Source of the DNA: Escherichia phage Lw1
Direction: 5' to 3' (one strand)
DNA length: 64,000 nucleotides
Sequence record: KC801932
Positions 49,332-61,277 of this stretch are shown here, one piece after another (the first letter of the stretch is position 1; every line of letters begins with the position of its first letter). The notes under the pieces were generated by a model that made no database searches, was not told the origin of the DNA, and saw only the letters and a program-made list of their open reading frames with translations. Made by a program: the position numbers and the translations under genes.

Positions 49332-49339
49332 TATAAATA
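49332..49339 (+). promoter_or_regulatory. T4-type late promoter core TATAAATA upstream of gene 34
   Basis: Exact TATAAATA, 31 nt upstream of the gp34 ATG. Confidence 0.55.
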
Positions 49340-52300: not shown

Positions 52301-53029
52301 TTCCGTGGTGGTACAACGGATACAACGTGGCATGAAACGGTACAAGCAAGTGCATATCGCCTGGCGACTGGTACAACGGATACTGTTGATGTTCTGACGG
52401 TTGGTGATACCACAAACGGTGTTCTGGCTTACTACGGTAACACGTTGCGCCTGAACAGCAAAGCACTGGCGAATATTAACGCAAACGGTGATGTTGCTAT
52501 TGCAAGTGACGCAAGTCCTTCGATACAATTACGAACCGCTGCAACAAACGGCTGGAACGGGGTTGTTATCAGTAACGACAACGGAACTACCACAGCGACG
52601 GTGATCAACACTCGCAACTTTACCCAACACCTTGACAGTACCTATGTCAACGTAACGGGTGACACGATGACTGGCACACTGTCAGTTAACGTTAGCGGTA
52701 CGGGTGGACGCTTTACCAGTGTAAGCGGTACAGCACATATTCAGGCAGGTGATTTCGCTGGGGCAACTCAGAAAATGCGTCTGACTGGTATCAATGACCA
52801 GGTATTGACTGAATTTAACATCAATATCACCGATTACAATAAAGCGATGATCAACGGCAACCTGATCTATCATGCAGGTCGTAAGCCTACTCCGGCAGAA
52901 ATCGGGGCGGTTGCGGTTGCAGGTTCGACGGTTGATACGCTGGTTGTTCGTGACTACATCAAGATCGGAAACGTGAAAATCTACGCAAATCCAGTCACTA
53001 AGACTTGTGAATTTGAGTGGGAGGAATAA
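49370..53029 (+). CDS. 34: long tail fibre proximal subunit gp34
   Basis: 1219 aa; N-terminus FRATSGLDAAGEKVINV...GVNVDF...NTVQQYDPDRGY...KPAGAFDETKW matches recalled T4 gp34; many repeats of the fibre motif A-T-Q/T-A-E-x-N-A-G-T-DD-x-x-A-x-TPKKL. Confidence 0.88.
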   Translation: MVAKSFRATSGLDAAGEKVINVGKASRSVLSDGVNVDFFNEFNTVQQYDPDRGYSAYMAIIYARRIWYARADIASPAGAFDETKWISTRNDPKWVYNNVTSVDGLPVESGTYLMADGRFSELTYVLPDSPVEGDIVTIKDGGGMVGVNSMLVRSNTRQIRLRDAQSSSYRLTHPYMTVAFIFNGNLWRVSEMRDNRDSQFVNATGAGSFQMQSGMVTFRNSGTGKITLQLPKYANDGDSITTYDLDKLSSVNVATLQVYPNSGHTITYDSINGVTSVASQRSGYGIFIFDQTNNRWVVYDGDNRVRLRRISDDLNMLPNDYVFVTPIAGNPPTVRNVTLTLPQDVAEGDRVYISMYMMGKTQNCTIKVKDGSGETIRTNKNMMQFPQRKDYPPDDWFSVTTLSFNADTDYLPYMELSYLKATKEWVVAQYRPLVERVDPTNRSRLGVIALATQAEVNKNHEDTPSDELAVTPRTLANKTATETRRGIARLATTAEVNQNTTATFLDDVIVTPKKLNERTATEDRRGILEIATQAETNAGTDDNTAITPKKLDARRASETLAGIGKLVTTGDTTAEGALRGDAGTNVYNFNNGVDLITPKSLNEKTATEKSKGLVVLATENEVVTGAAAGSASMPIVVTPEMLHRKTSTEARIGLIEIATQTETNAGTDDLRAVTPKKLNDRKATETLDGIIALATTAEVAAGTVTNKAVVPVKLKEFFDVTSHVAVATVDGLTQSGTIWTTVNLGIAAATETQRGTLRVATQAETNAGTLDTVIITAKKLQAKKATDTAEGIIRCATNSEAAAGTSTTLAITPATMQYLNGNDPAWGATTVRRGAVFITTKSNTFIGDNLVGSTQPVDNYLEDFYAVSPRGLNYALQNFLPLNATAQNSLKLGGVVAASWMRRDADQTVTGNNTFNGTSNFVGNVTTNGTLTANAAVTVNNTVTTNNNINQSAKANTVYANTVLSSAAAGTKNLLRTFRGGTTDTTWHETVQASAYRLATGTTDTVDVLTVGDTTNGVLAYYGNTLRLNSKALANINANGDVAIASDASPSIQLRTAATNGWNGVVISNDNGTTTATVINTRNFTQHLDSTYVNVTGDTMTGTLSVNVSGTGGRFTSVSGTAHIQAGDFAGATQKMRLTGINDQVLTEFNINITDYNKAMINGNLIYHAGRKPTPAEIGAVAVAGSTVDTLVVRDYIKIGNVKIYANPVTKTCEFEWEE

Positions 53030-53034
53030 TTTAA

Positions 53035-54615
53035 ATGGCGAATAACGAATTCATGGCGTTATTCGGCCCTGATAGTTTCACGGCGAATGTGTTTTCAGAA
53101 GCAAACGCCGTGAAATATCGGCTTGTTGTGCGTGGGGCTAATTTAAGCTCTACGCTCAACACGGTCGAGGTTTCTATTAACGGGGCTGATATTATCAACC
53201 GAAACACACAACGCGATCGCGGAATTAACCTAGCTATTATTGACGGAACAACTTTAGCATTATTGGATCACAAGACATTTGATATGTACGGCGATCCTGC
53301 TACGAACGGGAATGCACTTAGGGATTATCTGGATTCTCTTCCCGCGAATAGAATTGTGTGTTTTTATACCTACGACGCAATAGGCGGTGATGCTAACTTT
53401 ACTACAATCATGCGTAAGTTGGGATCTGTTGCATGGCCCGAAGCAAGATATTTTTCAAATGACGATCGTCGTCGTTCATCATATTCTGCGATCTATTCAT
53501 CAACCATGAAGAAAATCTGTATGGAAAACTTTGTGGGTGGTGCTGGTTCTGCTTCAAAGGATGACACCAGAAGTTTTGTTGAAGTCGTATTTGACGAATT
53601 CAGCGATATAGGCGTGACGGGTATTCCTGAACGTATGGTTGATGACGTAAACACATATCAAAACAGTGGTACAATGTACGGATATCATGCGTATGGTTTA
53701 TGGAATGTTGGAACCGATGTATTCCGTGGGGATATATTCAAAGTTACAGCAGACGTTTACTGTTCGCAAGAACTCCGAGATGCTGGCGGTGATACATATC
53801 TTTATATCTGGACTGAAACGACTGGTTCGCAATGGGTAACGTCTTCACTGATCCGAACTTTGGGTCTTGCTGCTGATACATGGCATTCGTTGTCTATGTA
53901 TTTCACGATCCCACAGGGAACAGAAAACGCTAAGATGGGATGTCAGGTTTATCACTATCCGTCAACTGTTAGCGTTGGTTTGTCTCAGTGTCGTAATGTT
54001 CAGATCTCAAAAGTACCACGCGAAGAAGTAAATCGTAATGGCGCTGCAATTGGTGTGAACGGTGTACGTATGCAGACGCTTTCCGAAGTCGATGATGCTG
54101 GAACCGAAAACCCGATTGAACAGTTGCTTTCATTGCCTGTATCACCTGCTGGAACACCGAGCAATAAAACGATTGTTTCACATAACTTCGCAGAACTCGA
54201 TTATCTTGTTTCTGATCCGGTTGAATACACGTCAACGGATACAACGAAATACTTGGTTAAAGAGTGGGCGAATAAACAGTATGATTCTGCTACCGTTTCT
54301 CTAAGCAGTGTGGGGGCTAAACCTGGCGATACAATGAGAATTGCTATCCAGGCCAAACGCGATGCAACGGCGATTTCTAACGATAAACGTTCGTTGGTTA
54401 CTGCACAATTCCTTGATGCTAACGGTCAGTATCTGTCAACTGATATACGCATTCAAGATGTAAGCACTATTCCGAACGTGTATACATTCTACAAGATGGA
54501 AGGTGTTATTCCTGATAATGCTGTTACATTTAACTTCGGGTTTTATCGTTATCCGAATAATACACGAACAGGATCTGTGTCTGTTAAAGACGTTAAACTG
54601 TCTATCGTTCGTTAA
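53035..54615 (+). CDS. 35: long tail fibre hinge protein gp35
   Basis: 526 aa; N-terminus MANNEFMALFG....FSEANAVKYRL and NRIV motif align with recalled T4 gp35 N-terminus; larger than T4 gp35. Confidence 0.72.
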   Translation: MANNEFMALFGPDSFTANVFSEANAVKYRLVVRGANLSSTLNTVEVSINGADIINRNTQRDRGINLAIIDGTTLALLDHKTFDMYGDPATNGNALRDYLDSLPANRIVCFYTYDAIGGDANFTTIMRKLGSVAWPEARYFSNDDRRRSSYSAIYSSTMKKICMENFVGGAGSASKDDTRSFVEVVFDEFSDIGVTGIPERMVDDVNTYQNSGTMYGYHAYGLWNVGTDVFRGDIFKVTADVYCSQELRDAGGDTYLYIWTETTGSQWVTSSLIRTLGLAADTWHSLSMYFTIPQGTENAKMGCQVYHYPSTVSVGLSQCRNVQISKVPREEVNRNGAAIGVNGVRMQTLSEVDDAGTENPIEQLLSLPVSPAGTPSNKTIVSHNFAELDYLVSDPVEYTSTDTTKYLVKEWANKQYDSATVSLSSVGAKPGDTMRIAIQAKRDATAISNDKRSLVTAQFLDANGQYLSTDIRIQDVSTIPNVYTFYKMEGVIPDNAVTFNFGFYRYPNNTRTGSVSVKDVKLSIVR

Positions 54616-54634
54616 GGGGCTTTGGCCCCTTTTT
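54614..54634 (+). terminator. rho-independent terminator after gene 35
   Basis: AAGGGGC-tttg-GCCCCTT followed by TTTTC. Confidence 0.7.
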
Positions 54635-54718
54635 CATAAATACAGTCATTATAGGAGAATTTTATGGCTGATTTGAAATGGGGGCGCTGGTATCTGGAGT
54701 GCGTCAAACCTTCCGTTA

Positions 54719-56965
54719 ATGCCGTCCGGTGGACAAATAACGTATAAAGGCTGGCGTATCTATACCGAAAATGATCGCCCGACAGCGGAAGATATAGGCG
54801 CATTATCACTTGCTAATGGTGGTACTGTAAACAATGATACAACATTCAATAAAGACGTAACCGTAGGCGTTAACGCTGTTGTAGGGGCGTTGTTTTCAAG
54901 ATCGTATATTGATATTACTCGATCAGGAACTGAACCAAACATTGTATTTCGTCGCTCAGACGTTACTACTACGCCAACAACAGAACAAGCCCTTTTAATA
55001 ATTAACGCTATGAATGGGGCTAATCTTACTGCTGGTACGTTTAATATTCATGCGCGACCTGATGGTGGAAACAAGGTTTATATTACTGCGTATAAATCAG
55101 GATCGCAAAATACCTCATTGACTCTTGATTCACAGACACAATCGGTAACGGTAGAACAAGGTACTTTCCGTGTGCAAGGAAATACTGTTCTTGCTGGTAC
55201 TACGGCAACCAGTATGGCTGTATCTGGTGCGTTGACTGCGAATACCGTTACTCCGACGAACTGGTCAAATCATGACGTTCGTTATATGACGGGTATTCCT
55301 AACAACATAACAGGAACAAGCCTGGGTGCTGCTGAGGTAACTGAAAAGAACGATGTCCTGTCTGTATCAGGTAATATTGTTGATGGGCCTTACGGGAATA
55401 CCACGTATAACGGTCAGGTGTTGAACTATCGCCGTACTTCAAACGCTGGTAATGCTCTTACTCAGTTTTATCTGGATAATGGTGTATTCCATGTTCGTAG
55501 CGGTTCTGGTTCCCCCGGTGCGTGGTCGTGGATTGGTGGTAATGCTAACGGATGGCGCAAGGTTTACGACGAAAATAATAAGCCCACTCCGGCAGAAATC
55601 GGGGCGTTGAAAAACACAACCGATACGTTGAACGGTTCGTTAACTATCAATAGTGGTTCTTCGTTTGCTGGACTTTCTATAAGAAGTACCGCTGGACAAA
55701 GTGAATATCAGTTTGGAACAGCAACAAACACTGGTCATATCGGTATCGGAACAGTAGATCTGTATATTGGAAACCTTACCTCTGGTAAGTATATCCAAAT
55801 GTCGCATAACGGGGCTTTGACTTATTCAGGCGCGAAGATTTATCGTTCTGATGATAAACCAACTCCGAAAGAAATTGGCGCACCGACAACAGAAACTGCG
55901 TATATTAGTAATAACGATTCTATATGGGTTAAAATTGGCACTGCTACCGTAGTGCAATCAGCATCAACAATGAGCATCCGTATTACTGGTGGTTCCGGTT
56001 ATAATGCAGAACCTTCACAAGCACAATATGCGGATATTATCATTCGTAGCAACAACGGGGAATCGAAATCAATCGGCATTTCTATGTTCCGTACTGGTGC
56101 TTCTGCTCCTGGACAAGTTGGTTGGATTTATACAGGGACAGGGGATGATTATGACATCTATGTAGCTGTTGGCCCGTATCAACAAGGTGTTATGTTAACG
56201 TGGGATGGGACAGCACCAACTAAGTTTGTGCATAACATTGTTCCTGGAACAGGAACACAACCTGCTGGACTTACTCTGGGTATCACAAGCACATTGTTAA
56301 ACAGTGTGGATAGAGCAGTAACCAGTAGTGCTGTATTGAACGGTAAAACAACGCTTGCTGGCTATCTTCAATTGGATGGTACTGAGAGCACTATTCGAGG
56401 GATATACGGCGATGTCATTTTAAGGGATCATAATAATGGTAACGTGTCAGTTTCTGCTTCTCGTATAAATGGTACTCCTGGTACTCTTTATGTAGGTTAT
56501 CATAACCCAGGCATTGGTATATATTGTGCGGGTATTCGATTAGAAACTCCTACATTTGCCGCGAGTACGCTAACATGTAATGCTACATTATCATGTAACA
56601 GCAATATAACCGCTACTGGTGAAATTTATACAGCGAACAACGGCAACTTTAACGATGTGTATATTCGTTCCGATGAAAAACTGAAAAGTAATTTCAAAAA
56701 GATTGAAAACGCGTTGGATAAAGTTGATTTGATTGATGGTTTAACTTACGATAAAGCAAGTTATATCGGGGGCGAAACTGTTAATCGCGAAGCGGGTTTG
56801 ATTGCACAGCAACTACAGAAAGTATTACCGGAAGCTGTTGCGGTCAGTCGTGATGCAAAAGATAACGAAGTATTGGTGATCTCGCCTACGGCTACAATCG
56901 CTTTGCTGGTTAATGCGATCAAGGAACTGCGTGAAGAAGTAAGGGAACTCAAATCCCGAATTTAA
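54719..56965 (+). CDS. distal tail fibre protein A (gp36/gp37-like) with C-terminal intramolecular chaperone (peptidase S74-type) domain; 5' end apparently frameshifted
   Basis: 748-aa track ORF; the conserved fibre N-terminus MADLK is encoded from ATG 54664 (GGAG 8 nt upstream) in the -1 frame and joins this frame across a G5 run at 54680-54684; C-terminus YIRSDEKLKSNFKKIENAL...EAGLIAQQLQKVLPEAV matches the self-cleaving chaperone domain of endosialidase/T5 pb1-type fibres. Confidence 0.7.
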   Translation: MPSGGQITYKGWRIYTENDRPTAEDIGALSLANGGTVNNDTTFNKDVTVGVNAVVGALFSRSYIDITRSGTEPNIVFRRSDVTTTPTTEQALLIINAMNGANLTAGTFNIHARPDGGNKVYITAYKSGSQNTSLTLDSQTQSVTVEQGTFRVQGNTVLAGTTATSMAVSGALTANTVTPTNWSNHDVRYMTGIPNNITGTSLGAAEVTEKNDVLSVSGNIVDGPYGNTTYNGQVLNYRRTSNAGNALTQFYLDNGVFHVRSGSGSPGAWSWIGGNANGWRKVYDENNKPTPAEIGALKNTTDTLNGSLTINSGSSFAGLSIRSTAGQSEYQFGTATNTGHIGIGTVDLYIGNLTSGKYIQMSHNGALTYSGAKIYRSDDKPTPKEIGAPTTETAYISNNDSIWVKIGTATVVQSASTMSIRITGGSGYNAEPSQAQYADIIIRSNNGESKSIGISMFRTGASAPGQVGWIYTGTGDDYDIYVAVGPYQQGVMLTWDGTAPTKFVHNIVPGTGTQPAGLTLGITSTLLNSVDRAVTSSAVLNGKTTLAGYLQLDGTESTIRGIYGDVILRDHNNGNVSVSASRINGTPGTLYVGYHNPGIGIYCAGIRLETPTFAASTLTCNATLSCNSNITATGEIYTANNGNFNDVYIRSDEKLKSNFKKIENALDKVDLIDGLTYDKASYIGGETVNREAGLIAQQLQKVLPEAVAVSRDAKDNEVLVISPTATIALLVNAIKELREEVRELKSRI

Positions 56966-56969
56966 GAAA

Positions 56970-56990
56970 AGCCCTACGGGGCTTTTTCTT
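56970..56990 (+). terminator. rho-independent terminator
   Basis: AGCCC-tacg-GGGCT followed by TTTTTC. Confidence 0.7.
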
Positions 56991-56992
56991 TT

Positions 56993-57000
56993 TATAAATA
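56993..57000 (+). promoter_or_regulatory. T4-type late promoter core TATAAATA upstream of the second distal fibre gene
   Basis: Exact TATAAATA, 27 nt upstream of ATG 57027. Confidence 0.55.
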
Positions 57001-57026
57001 TCATAAAAGCATTTGAGGATCTAATA

Positions 57027-59495
57027 ATGGCAGATTTAAAAACGGGTACTACCATAGGCGGTAATACTATCTGGAGTCAGGCGAATTTACCCTTACTCAC
57101 TAACGGAAACACATTAACGTATAAAGGCTTTAAAGTCTATACTGAAAACGACAAACCAACGAAAGCCGAAATCGGTCTGGGTAACGTAACAAACGATGCA
57201 CAGGTTAAAAAGTCCGGCGATGAAATGACAGGAGATTTGACGTTAAAGAATAACTCGCAACTTACCGTCCCTCGCTGTATTAACCTGGTATCAGACACAA
57301 CCAATTTAGCCCCTTGGTTATTAACGACTCGTTCAGATAATAACGCGGTTACAGATCCGTTTCCATCACAGCATACACGTACATTTACGTTGTTCATCAA
57401 TACGAAGTCAAATACTTCTGATCCTGGTGGTGGCGCAAACCTTGCTGCTCTATTATCACATCAGGCAACTACTGGGGCTGGTTCTATCGAACTGCAAGCA
57501 TACGATGCACCAAACAAGACAACTGGCGCTACGGGCATTCTACGCGCTCAGATTGGGCTTAATGGTTGGGATGGTTCAATTAACCTTGCCGGTGCTTCGT
57601 TAAACGTTGGAATGACAACGACAATTAACTCTAATTTATACGCGAATGAACTCATTTCGAAAGGGGCAGGAAACCGTAACGTAACTATGCAAGACACAAA
57701 CGGCAACGAACTAGCTATGCTGTTTGCAGATACGGGTAAGAACCTGTATGTTCGTACTGGTGGTTCATATGTATCTCGTTTCGCTGCTGATGGCACTCTT
57801 ATTCTGGCTAACGGCTTGACTGTTCCGCGTCAGGTATTTGTTAACGGTGCTTCACTTCCAGTGAACAATGGTCAAGTTCGACTTGATACAAGCGCTGATG
57901 GAAACGCTGTTGGTGACGGTGCAACGCATCTTGGTATGAAATTAGAAGATGGGAAATATTATCATTATTTCCGTGGTGCTGGTGTGATGTACATTGACAT
58001 GAAAGGTGGAATATCTTCTTCAACCCCGTTGTATATGAATGGAGTTGATCAAGCAATACCTAAAGTTGAAATGCTATCTACTGGTGCTGCTGGTGCTAAA
58101 AACTTTTTGCGGCGGTTTCGTGGTGGTCTTCCTGATATTATATGGCATGAAACTGTTCAGGGTGGTGATTACCGATTAGCAATAGGGGATACCGATGCGG
58201 ATTATCAGTTAAGAATTAGTGCTGATGGTGCTAATAGAGGTGGTTATGTATTTGGTGGTACGTTTACGGCTGATCGCGGTAATGATGGATTCAAGATCCG
58301 TTATAAACCTGATACTGAATCAGCAATGTTCCAGATCTGGAACAGGGATACATCAGTATTGAACTCTTATTTCGGATACGGGTCAAGTAATCAGGCAACA
58401 GTTAACCTGTATAACCGTTTAGGTGATATTGGCGTTTCTACTCCAAACGCGGCGTTCCGTCTGGATAATACTACGTTAACTCTTGGTAACTCTTCATCTG
58501 CGGAAGCCAGTCAACGTGCGTTTACTATCAGGAACTGGGGAAACAACTCGGCGGGTGGATACCGTGCTGCTGTACTTGAAGTTGGTGACGGCACAAGTTA
58601 TCACTTTTATAGCCAACGCCGTTCTGATAACTTAGTCGAAATTGCATTTGTTGGCGATGCTTATGTCAATGGGACTACATTTCTACAGAATAACGCGCGT
58701 GTTCGTGGCAGTGACGGTATTTCTATCGAAGCGGATACAAACTGTCATGTGTGGTTTAGAACCGCTGGCGGTGCGGAAAAAGCAGTATTATATGCAGAGA
58801 ATAACGGCAGCGTAAAACTTCGTACATCAAACCAGCAATATTCTCTTACGATCGCTGACGGCATGATCCTCGCTACTGGACAACAGACAACTGGAGACAC
58901 TAGAGGGTTAATCCGTGGTGCTGTTACTGGTGGTGCGTTTGTCGCATGGCGCGATCGTCCTGCTGGTTTGCTGCTGGATTGTCCTGATTCACGAAATCTA
59001 GCATACGCTATTTGGAAAGCTACTCATTGGGGTGAACAACATATCGCATCAATGGATGTCCATGCGGGTGGCGGCAATCCAGTGGTAATTATGCACGTTG
59101 GTGGCGGTGAATTTACCTTTAACAACGTTGGTTACTTTAGCACTAACGGCGCTATGTATGCAGGTGGAAACGGCGATTTTAACGATGTCTATATTCGTTC
59201 TGATATCAGACTGAAATCTAACCTGGTTGAACTGAAAGATGCACTGAGTAAAGTTGAACAGCTTAAAGGTTATATCTATGATAAGAAACAGAAAATCGAA
59301 GATGAAGAACCACAGCATCGTGAAGCGGGTATTATTGCTCAGGATCTTCAAAAGGTTTTACCGGAAGCAGTAAGAGAAAACGAAGAAACCGGAATGTTGA
59401 CGATCTCCCCGTCAAGTGTTAACGCGCTTCTGATTACGGCAATCAATGAATTGCGTGAACGTCTGGAAGCAATCGAACGGAAAATAGGGGCGTAA
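57027..59495 (+). CDS. distal tail fibre protein B (gp36/gp37-like) with C-terminal intramolecular chaperone (peptidase S74-type) domain
   Basis: 822 aa; N-terminus MADLKTGTTIGGNTIWSQANLPL...TYKGFKVYTENDKPT parallels T4 gp36 N-terminus (MADLKVGSTTGGSVIW...YKSFKIYSEYNKP); internal FRGG...WHETVQ joint motif shared with gp34; C-terminus YIRSDIRLKSNL...EAGIIAQDLQKVLPEAV. Confidence 0.8.
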   Translation: MADLKTGTTIGGNTIWSQANLPLLTNGNTLTYKGFKVYTENDKPTKAEIGLGNVTNDAQVKKSGDEMTGDLTLKNNSQLTVPRCINLVSDTTNLAPWLLTTRSDNNAVTDPFPSQHTRTFTLFINTKSNTSDPGGGANLAALLSHQATTGAGSIELQAYDAPNKTTGATGILRAQIGLNGWDGSINLAGASLNVGMTTTINSNLYANELISKGAGNRNVTMQDTNGNELAMLFADTGKNLYVRTGGSYVSRFAADGTLILANGLTVPRQVFVNGASLPVNNGQVRLDTSADGNAVGDGATHLGMKLEDGKYYHYFRGAGVMYIDMKGGISSSTPLYMNGVDQAIPKVEMLSTGAAGAKNFLRRFRGGLPDIIWHETVQGGDYRLAIGDTDADYQLRISADGANRGGYVFGGTFTADRGNDGFKIRYKPDTESAMFQIWNRDTSVLNSYFGYGSSNQATVNLYNRLGDIGVSTPNAAFRLDNTTLTLGNSSSAEASQRAFTIRNWGNNSAGGYRAAVLEVGDGTSYHFYSQRRSDNLVEIAFVGDAYVNGTTFLQNNARVRGSDGISIEADTNCHVWFRTAGGAEKAVLYAENNGSVKLRTSNQQYSLTIADGMILATGQQTTGDTRGLIRGAVTGGAFVAWRDRPAGLLLDCPDSRNLAYAIWKATHWGEQHIASMDVHAGGGNPVVIMHVGGGEFTFNNVGYFSTNGAMYAGGNGDFNDVYIRSDIRLKSNLVELKDALSKVEQLKGYIYDKKQKIEDEEPQHREAGIIAQDLQKVLPEAVRENEETGMLTISPSSVNALLITAINELRERLEAIERKIGA

Positions 59496-59520
59496 TGCCC
59501 CTCTTTAAAGAGGTAAAATT

Positions 59521-60045
59521 ATGGCAATTGTTGGAGTACCCGGATGGATCGGGTCGTCTGCGGTAGCAGAAACAGGACAGCGTTGGATGTCTGCGGCTGG
59601 TAGTGCTGTTCGTATTGGTGCGCCATTATGGATGTCGCAAATGGCAAACCAATCAGTATATAACATTTCCATTCCGATTTTTGAACGTTATTATAATGGT
59701 ATTCGTTATCGTGGGTGTTGGGGGACGGGTTGGAACTTCCCATATTCTAAACCTGGTTGGAACGCTACTCCTGGTGGTAGTTTTAACGGGCTGGCTTACG
59801 GGACTTGTGTTGCAGTGCAAAAACATCTCGATGGCGAATATAGCGTATTAACTATTCAAAACGGTCCTGCTGCAAACTTCCGACTCACTACTGATGACGG
59901 CGCGGTGTTCAACTTCGTTGATACCGGACGATATGACGCTGGTTATAGAAACTACAAAATCGATCCGACTCAACATTTTGTATGGTTCGAATATCTTAAC
60001 GCTCGTGTAGGACAAACAAGGCAAGGATTGGTAGCTATAAGATAA
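59521..60045 (+). CDS. 38: gp38-like protein (N-terminal fibre-tip attachment domain only)
   Basis: 174 aa; N-terminus MAIVGVPGWIGSSAVAETGQRWMS closely matches the recalled N-terminus of T2-type gp38 adhesins (MAVVGVPGWIGSSAVNETGQRWMS); lacks the long glycine-rich receptor-binding segment. Confidence 0.6.
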   Translation: MAIVGVPGWIGSSAVAETGQRWMSAAGSAVRIGAPLWMSQMANQSVYNISIPIFERYYNGIRYRGCWGTGWNFPYSKPGWNATPGGSFNGLAYGTCVAVQKHLDGEYSVLTIQNGPAANFRLTTDDGAVFNFVDTGRYDAGYRNYKIDPTQHFVWFEYLNARVGQTRQGLVAIR

Positions 60046-60093
60046 ATCTAAATATGATCGGGGGGTTGGGAATCCCCCGAATGAGGGTATAAA

Positions 60094-60735
60094 ATGGCGC
60101 TATTACAAGATAAATTGGCGGTGCTTGAACGGGTAATATCGTTCATCATGGCAGTCAAAACATGGAAACAACTTTTCATTAAATTGGTTCTTATCGTTAC
60201 TATATTCATTATGTTTGTTACGTGGTACAAGTGGGATGACTTATTCGCAGTCTGGAAATCATCGAGCGTCATAGACGTTCCGACGATGGAGGTTGAAAAA
60301 GCAAAAAAGTTTGAATCCGCATCCATTGAACAGTTAAACATAGTGCATTTAACTACGGGTGCGGATTTTTCGGCAGTCTTTGGGTTCAGACCTAAGAATG
60401 TTAATTATTTTGTTGATATAATTGCGTATGAAGGGAAGTTACCACACCAGATAAATCCGAAAAATTTGGGGGGCTATCCTATAGACAAAACATCGGAAGA
60501 ATACAACAGACATATAAACGGGCTGTACTACGTTTCACACGTCGCCAGCCCGTATCTTCCGACCAAAGATCTTGTTCCGGTTGCCTATACCTTTAGTTGT
60601 CCTTACTTCAATCTCGAAAACTACTATTCAGGATCAATCTTAATGGAATGGTATAAGCAGAAGCCCGAAGTCACCGATATGAAGTTAATGATCGTGTGCA
60701 ATCAGGCCGCTAGAATTTTAGGCAGGATTCGATGA
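60094..60735 (+). CDS. t: holin T
   Basis: 213 aa; one N-terminal transmembrane segment; EQL.IVH..... ADFSAV..FRPKN.NYFVDIIAYEGKLP, CPYFNL.N.Y.G and CNQAARILGR match recalled T4 holin T. Confidence 0.88.
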   Translation: MALLQDKLAVLERVISFIMAVKTWKQLFIKLVLIVTIFIMFVTWYKWDDLFAVWKSSSVIDVPTMEVEKAKKFESASIEQLNIVHLTTGADFSAVFGFRPKNVNYFVDIIAYEGKLPHQINPKNLGGYPIDKTSEEYNRHINGLYYVSHVASPYLPTKDLVPVAYTFSCPYFNLENYYSGSILMEWYKQKPEVTDMKLMIVCNQAARILGRIR

Positions 60736-60990
60736 TAATTTCAGTTTTTTACTCAAAGCCCGACTGATGAAGTTTTTAATCTTCGTCATCGGGCTTTTGT
60801 CGTATATTTCCCATACCCGCATAAGCTCGTAAGGTGTCGGAACGTATTCATCGTTCCAGTATCCCACGTTCCCTATCGTAATGCGCCGGAAACCAGCCTC
60901 TGCGTTGTAATATACAAAGAACCCAGCCTTGCCTACAGGGGATACCTTAAAACCCCGTGTAGCGGCTTTCATTGCCTCTTCGTGTGTCAT
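60718..60990 (-). CDS. hypothetical protein
   Basis: 90 aa from ATG at 60990, which overlaps the upstream stop (ATGA coupling); the track ORF extends to 61062. Confidence 0.45.
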   Translation of the reverse strand: MTHEEAMKAATRGFKVSPVGKAGFFVYYNAEAGFRRITIGNVGYWNDEYVPTPYELMRVWEIYDKSPMTKIKNFISRALSKKLKLSSNPA

Positions 60991-61277
60991 CACGCATCCC
61001 CGCACCACTGGTTGATATGGAACCGGACACCATATGCTTCCATTTCTATAAAATGTAGACAATGCAACCCGTCATGATGATCCTGTTCTGCAACTATATC
61101 CCAGTCGGTTGCCTTTTGTTCTTCAACACTGGCAATGAATACCTGGTTGATTTCAACTTTGCGATGTGACCGACGAATGATCGTATCTCCTTCACGGAAA
61201 ACGATCATATCTGGAACCGTTGGACGGTACGCGGTTTTACCCGCGCACACTACATTTAACATTTCTTCATAAGTCAT
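60990..61277 (-). CDS. hypothetical protein
   Basis: 95 aa; translationally coupled to neighbours. Confidence 0.45.
   Translation of the reverse strand: MTYEEMLNVVCAGKTAYRPTVPDMIVFREGDTIIRRSHRKVEINQVFIASVEEQKATDWDIVAEQDHHDGLHCLHFIEMEAYGVRFHINQWCGDA

Follow-up and report, generated by a model that had tools for sequence, protein, structure and literature searches.

Escherichia phage Lw1 probably carries a full-length RB43-type long tail fibre adhesin gp38

In most T-even-like phages, the C-terminal chaperone domain of the fibre protein gp37 self-cleaves and a monomer of gp38 then attaches (PMC9569957; PMC3157838; bioRxiv 10.64898/2026.05.12.724579); what the removal of the chaperone domain creates in these phages is a docking site for a separately encoded adhesin. 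In the adhesins of the T2/T6/Ox2/S16 type (Gp38_N plus GP38 domains; structure 6F45), the C-terminal domain is a polyglycine sandwich with hypervariable segments. The gp38 of T4 is instead a chaperone for the folding of gp37, and the adhesin function of that phage lies within gp37 itself (Trojet et al. 2011, PMC3157838). The closest described relative of the protein analysed here is the gp38 of RB43, a 174-aa ORF whose first ~50 amino acids are T6-like and whose ~120-aa C-terminus is novel (Trojet et al. 2011, Genome Biol Evol 3:674, PMC3157838). All the host-range mutants of RB42 and RB43 carry Q100K or Q100R in this protein, among them the K-12-adapted RB43-GVA (Q100R) and four independently selected mutants of RB42, every one with Q100 changed to K or R (PMC3157838). 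RB43-GVA does not grow on waaG or waaP (LPS core) mutants, and OmpF is also needed (PMC3157838). RB43 has, in addition, a duplication of g37, the function of which is unclear according to the same authors (Trojet et al. 2011, PMC3157838). Short variants of gp38, made of Gp38_N and a short C-terminus that is not glycine-rich and annotated as “tail fiber adhesin,” are found in Klebsiella phages of Slopekvirus/Jiaodavirus (e.g., Matisse), and a gp38 variant of phage Miro has been modelled with AlphaFold3 (PMC13611949).

The window, i.e., the whole stretch of 64,000 nucleotides of Escherichia phage Lw1 (KC801932) that was analysed, belongs to a Pseudotevenvirus, with about 84-90% nucleotide identity to RB43, Miller, CfP1, and Xman. 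The identity is about 90% to Citrobacter phages Xman, Miller, and CfP1 from 25000 to 49000 and ~84% to RB43, RB16, Citrobacter phages Miller and CfP1, and others from 53000 to 61000. The fibre locus has the order gp34-gp35-gp36-gp37-gp38-holin t, and from gp35 to holin t this order is the same as in RB43, RB16, Miller, and CfP1; the succession of gp38 and holin t is common to RB43 and VR26. The part of the locus considered here contains the following features.

54719 to 56965, plus strand: “gp36,” 748 aa, a further distal fibre protein of the gp36/37-like kind, whose chaperone domain spans residues 651-748 (Peptidase_S74 at 651-707; PHROG 5667 over residues 1-512)
56966 to 57000, plus strand: terminator-like hairpin with a T-run (56966-56987), then the T4-type late-promoter motif TATAAATA (56993-57000)
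57027 to 59495, plus strand: gp37, 822 aa (PHROG 5667 over the full length; Peptidase_S74 at 725-783; match to the S16 gp37 tip, 6F45_A)
59521 to 60045, plus strand: gp38, 174 aa, probable RB43-type long-tail-fibre tip adhesin (ORF call, RB43 and RB16 identity, PHROG 1121)
60094 to 60735, plus strand: holin t, whose place directly downstream of gp38 is conserved in T-even-like phages (Pfam Phage_holin_T, E = 3e-54)

The ATG of gp38 lies 25 nt past the stop codon of the upstream fibre gene and is preceded, 7 nt upstream, by a GAGG ribosome-binding site. A gap-free alignment of all 174 residues of its product with RB43 gp38 shows 92% identity, and the identity to RB16 gp38 is 94.3%. An exact-sequence look-up of the protein returned no record. 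The initial annotation had called it truncated, a description that does not fit the data: its match to the “tail fiber adhesin” profile, PHROG 1121, is end to end (E = 6e-63; profile positions 1-179 of 181 aligned with residues 1-171), and its 20 closest full-length homologues in a large protein collection (P0001-P0020, 49-92% identical) are themselves 170-174 aa long, so that gp38 is a full-length member of its class and not a truncation. In the phage collection, 254 records matched at least 80% of the query, and full-length relatives were found in phages of Escherichia, Citrobacter, Enterobacter, Cronobacter, and Klebsiella. The sequence profile, the high identity to RB43 and RB16 together with Q100, and the place between gp37 and holin t in a Pseudotevenvirus fibre locus all assign the protein to the RB43 type. 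We conclude, with a probability of about 0.9, that it is the tip adhesin usually found on the tail fibres of RB43-like (Pseudotevenvirus) phages, complete in length and neither truncated nor vestigial. As such, it was already known, having been described in 2011, and adds no new phage biology; we advise annotating it as “long tail fibre adhesin gp38 (RB43 type)” and not as a truncated gp38 or an “assembly catalyst.” Published genetics of the RB42/RB43 orthologues indicate that it would be a virion component setting adsorption and host range.

Along its length, the gene divides into the two following parts.

59521 to 59655, plus strand: Gp38_N, the gp37-attachment domain, residues ~1-45 (Pfam PF21721, hhalign, S16 6F45_D)
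59659 to 60042, plus strand: C-terminal specificity domain, residues ~47-174, predicted to be β-rich with one helix, holding Q100 and the variable loop 100-108

The first part is shared with the T2/T6/Ox2/S16-type adhesins, and the two N-terminal domains are homologous. Gp38_N (PF21721) was the sole family above threshold in a Pfam scan (residues 1-42, E = 2.7e-20). Two other matches were dismissed as chance, one to Pfam LpxR (13.2 bits, cutoff 26) and one in PDB to Drosophila CG9211 (E about 0.015). Residues 1-64 are 56% identical to the Ox2/T2-type gp38 of phage VR26, and residues 1-45 are about 75% identical to other T-even gp38s. The initial annotation had noticed a match to T2-type gp38 in the first 25 residues and had suggested, as checks, a profile comparison with S16 gp38 and the mapping of host-range mutations. 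The match is indeed far beyond chance, although it extends over about 45-53 residues: S16 gp38, from a Salmonella phage and the sole solved relative by sequence (6F45_D, residues 6-44), matches at residues 8-45, and a profile-profile comparison (hhalign) of the RB43-type family with T2-type gp38 gave a probability of 99.8%, over residues 1-53 only. As to the host-range mutations, their mapping was published in 2011 for the 92%-identical orthologue and supports an adhesin role (PMC3157838). When gp38 was modelled with AlphaFold2 as a single chain, from an alignment of 26 sequences, the mean pLDDT was 78.7, with residues ~50-174 mostly >90 and residues 1-43 <50; the low values of the latter would be expected for a segment that becomes ordered only on the gp37 tip. 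When gp38 was compared with its 20 closest homologues, variability was lower in the N-terminal domain (mean entropy of 0.63 bits) than in the C-terminal one (0.94 bits).

The second part is a different matter. No GP38 domain (PF05268) was found in gp38 by the Pfam scan, whereas the same test detected it in VR26 gp38 at E = 1.1e-64. When the C-terminal domains of the RB43 and T2 types were aligned alone, hhalign gave a probability of 0.2%, and glycine makes up 12.5% of the C-terminal part in gp38 vs 24.8% in the T2 type. The glycine-rich domain that marks T2/T6/S16-type proteins, with its motifs separating hypervariable segments, is thus absent. The initial annotation was correct in that this protein of 174 aa lacks the long glycine-rich loops and has short glycine motifs, GWNF at residues 70-73 and GGSFNG at 85-90; we rejected these motifs as remnants of the GP38 glycine-rich ones on the same hhalign and glycine values. 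As judged from its sequence, the C-terminal stretch of ~125 residues is a domain unrelated to the glycine-rich T2/T6/S16 module, and, because there is no profile similarity between the two, it is a replacement and not a remnant. AlphaFold2 predicts for it a β-rich fold with one helix (149-160) and without a solved relative, in contrast to the polyglycine sandwich and with half the glycine; a model of such confidence also counts against a decaying remnant.

The RB43, RB42, and RB16 proteins resemble gp38 of Lw1 in length (174 aa, 92-94% identity), locus position, and architecture (Gp38_N plus the novel C-terminal domain), and Q100 is kept (codon 59818-59820). There are 14 substitutions with respect to RB43 gp38, 13 of them in the C-terminal domain. 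Among gp38 and its 20 closest homologues, the most variable block, residues 101-110 (1.60 bits), directly follows Q100, in the loop that joins strands 91-99 and 109-113, and blocks 131-150 and 81-90 come next in variability. This variability, together with the one mutational hot spot, points to the probable receptor-binding surface. Beside Q100, residues 101-102 are KH here and NY in RB43, and the fine specificity of the Lw1 protein may differ from that of RB43. For retargeting the host range of a Pseudotevenvirus, gp38, and notably the Q100 loop, is the obvious engineering site.

Both upstream fibre genes end in an intramolecular chaperone domain, as the initial annotation had recognised from the sequence, and it had taken this as a sign that a tip adhesin was not obviously needed. 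The second point does not follow from the first. In VR26, too, gp37 carries Peptidase_S74 (residues 980-1035), and its gene precedes one for a Gp38_N+GP38 adhesin; the S16 gp37 fragment ends in the same domain; and both fibre proteins of the window match this fragment, which was crystallised with gp38, chaperone region included. In these phages gp38 docks after cleavage. Since VR26, S16, and the literature all show the same arrangement, a gp37 that bears a chaperone domain and a gp38 encoded separately are expected to occur side by side, and the Lw1 protein occupies the same site downstream of a Peptidase_S74-bearing gp37, with the same role of separately encoded tip adhesin, as its T2/T6/Ox2/S16-type counterparts. 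Gp38 is needed because the gp37 of this lineage is left without a receptor-binding domain of its own once the chaperone domain is gone. More generally, a terminal chaperone domain in a fibre gene does not imply self-sufficient receptor recognition.

The mechanism we propose would start with the trimerisation of gp37 (822 aa), aided by its C-terminal Peptidase_S74 chaperone domain. This domain would then cleave itself off at ...NDVYIR↓SD..., after residue 724, where the conserved junction DVYIR↓SD is located (the exact bond is placed by analogy with S16/T2). Gp38_N (~45 residues) would dock onto the newly exposed gp37 tip, and the β-rich C-terminal domain of gp38 (~47-174) would contact the host surface, its specificity being tuned by surface loops, chiefly the 99-108 loop carrying Q100. 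One gp38 monomer per fibre, its presence in the virion, and the receptor of Lw1 are presumed by analogy with S16 and T2.

The distribution of late promoters bears on which fibre protein is the partner. The motif TATAAATA occurs nine times in the window (2.7 expected by chance), once at 49332, preceding gp34, and once at 56993, where 27 nt separate it from the start codon of gp37; none was found between gp37 and gp38. With a late promoter before gp37 and none before gp38, the two genes are most likely transcribed together as a single late unit, and this favours gp37 as the protein onto which gp38 docks. The hairpin at 56966-56987 ends the 748-aa gp36 gene, and gp36 and gp37 may be transcribed separately. 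Another hairpin, the G+C-rich GGGGGGUUGGGAAUCCCCC at 60058-60080 between gp38 and holin t, was considered as a terminator and rejected, as it has no T-run and its folding is equalled or bettered by 15 of 200 shuffles (z = -1.48).

As in RB43, where the GenBank record AY266307 names the two genes “36-37.1” and “36-37.2,” gp36 and gp37 each combine a gp36-like N-terminus with a self-cleaving chaperone C-terminus; the two may assemble in series or form alternative fibres. The alternative that survives best is one in which gp38 would cap both gp36 (748 aa) and gp37 (822 aa) after the chaperones are shed, giving two fibre types with the same adhesin. The two proteins do have the chaperone domain in common, as well as the ~12 residues that lead up to the cleavage junction (...NG(N/D)FNDVYIR↓SD), and the tips of RB43 gp36 and gp37 both have the motif “IWKATxW.” However, the only other part that gp36 and gp37 of the window share is the N-terminal junction motif, and upstream of the cleavage junction gp36 is unrelated to gp37 tips. 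While the gp37 tip resembles that of RB43 gp37 (“IWKATHW”), the IWKAT-type motif is absent from the window gp36, though present in RB43 gp36. Apart from the junction motif and a final stretch of ~20 residues ahead of the cleavage site, residues ~328-650 of gp36 (55700-56668) are unrelated to RB43 gp36. A search of 50,697 phage records gave no close relative of this region, every match being <60% identical. Among the matches listed, only one covered most of this region (28.6%, a hypothetical protein of Yersinia phage vB_YpM_5), and partial matches of 30-39% involved pieces of T-even gp37 and tail fibre proteins from Salmonella/Escherichia phages with genomes of ~85 kb. The distal region of gp36 looks like a module swap, one that could provide a second receptor specificity independent of gp38. 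Besides, gp38 belongs to the probable gp37 transcription unit, from which gp36 is separated by the terminator-like hairpin and the late promoter, and, according to Trojet et al. (2011, PMC3157838), the length of the fibre is consistent with one gp37 trimer. Capping of both fibres thus seems unlikely to us, and gene order, promoter placement, and tip similarity point to gp37 as the protein that gp38 caps.

A role as an assembly chaperone outside the virion, helping gp37 to fold in the manner of T4 gp38, is considerably less probable still. It would agree with the position of the gene, the same as that of T4 gene 38, and with the legacy annotation “distal long tail fiber assembly catalyst” in the records of RB43, RB16, Maroon, and Matisse. 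However, gene name and position are all that T4 gp38 has in common with the Lw1 protein, in which no similarity to T4 gp38 or to other fibre-assembly families was detected with Pfam or NCBIfam; the former yielded Gp38_N and the sub-threshold LpxR, and the latter matched no family. The N-terminus is homologous to the attachment domain that is bound to gp37 in the S16 crystal, gp37 has a chaperone domain of its own, and the Q100 host-range mutants argue for direct receptor contact (PMC3157838). The label “assembly catalyst” in the RB43 and RB16 GenBank records is a name carried over from T4, and a tip-stabilising role of gp38 may exist as a secondary one. Weakest of all, and effectively refuted, is a T2-type gp38, truncated or vestigial, that no longer has the glycine-rich receptor-binding domain and is either in decay or a mere fibre cap, a reading suggested by the 174 aa (~260 aa in the T2 type), the missing PF05268, and the short glycine motifs, but contradicted by the end-to-end match to the 181-position profile, the narrow length range of the 20 closest homologues, the full-length relatives in phages of five host genera, the confidently modelled C-terminal domain unrelated to the glycine-rich one, and the host-range mutations that map to it (PMC3157838). 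From the three possibilities in the initial annotation (minimal adhesin, vestige, or cap), it is hence the adhesin that stands, as a member of a full-length class with a distinct C-terminal domain.

The short Slopekvirus/Jiaodavirus gp38 variants are 30-38% identical to the Lw1 protein over nearly the full length, with loop insertions and deletions, and are far more divergent than the RB43-type proteins. In databases, Gp38_N is joined to several short C-terminal modules that are distinct by BLAST (P0022-P0072); apart from the glycine-rich and RB43-type modules, BLAST sorts them into four multi-member groups and six singletons. Such a variety of modules on the same attachment domain matches the modular design proposed in 2011. 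For some of the fusion proteins, the source given is a genome assembly of Salmonella enterica or Enterobacter, and P0041 bears the name of a Listeria phage LPML1 protein, a source that looks odd or mislabelled.

Elsewhere in the locus, the junction motif (I/V)Y..(D/N).(K/R)PT..(E/D)IG recurs at the C-terminus of gp34 (1166), at positions 14, 282, and 374 of gp36, and at position 37, near the N-terminus, of gp37, and is a plausible recombination site or junction linker between fibre modules. The hinge protein gp35 (53035-54615) is considerably longer here (526 aa) than in classical T-even phages, in which it has ~380 aa (Trojet et al. 2011, PMC3157838), and its residues 62-132 match the Pfam family ILEI (PF15711, “Interleukin-like EMT inducer”) at E = 3.5e-12.
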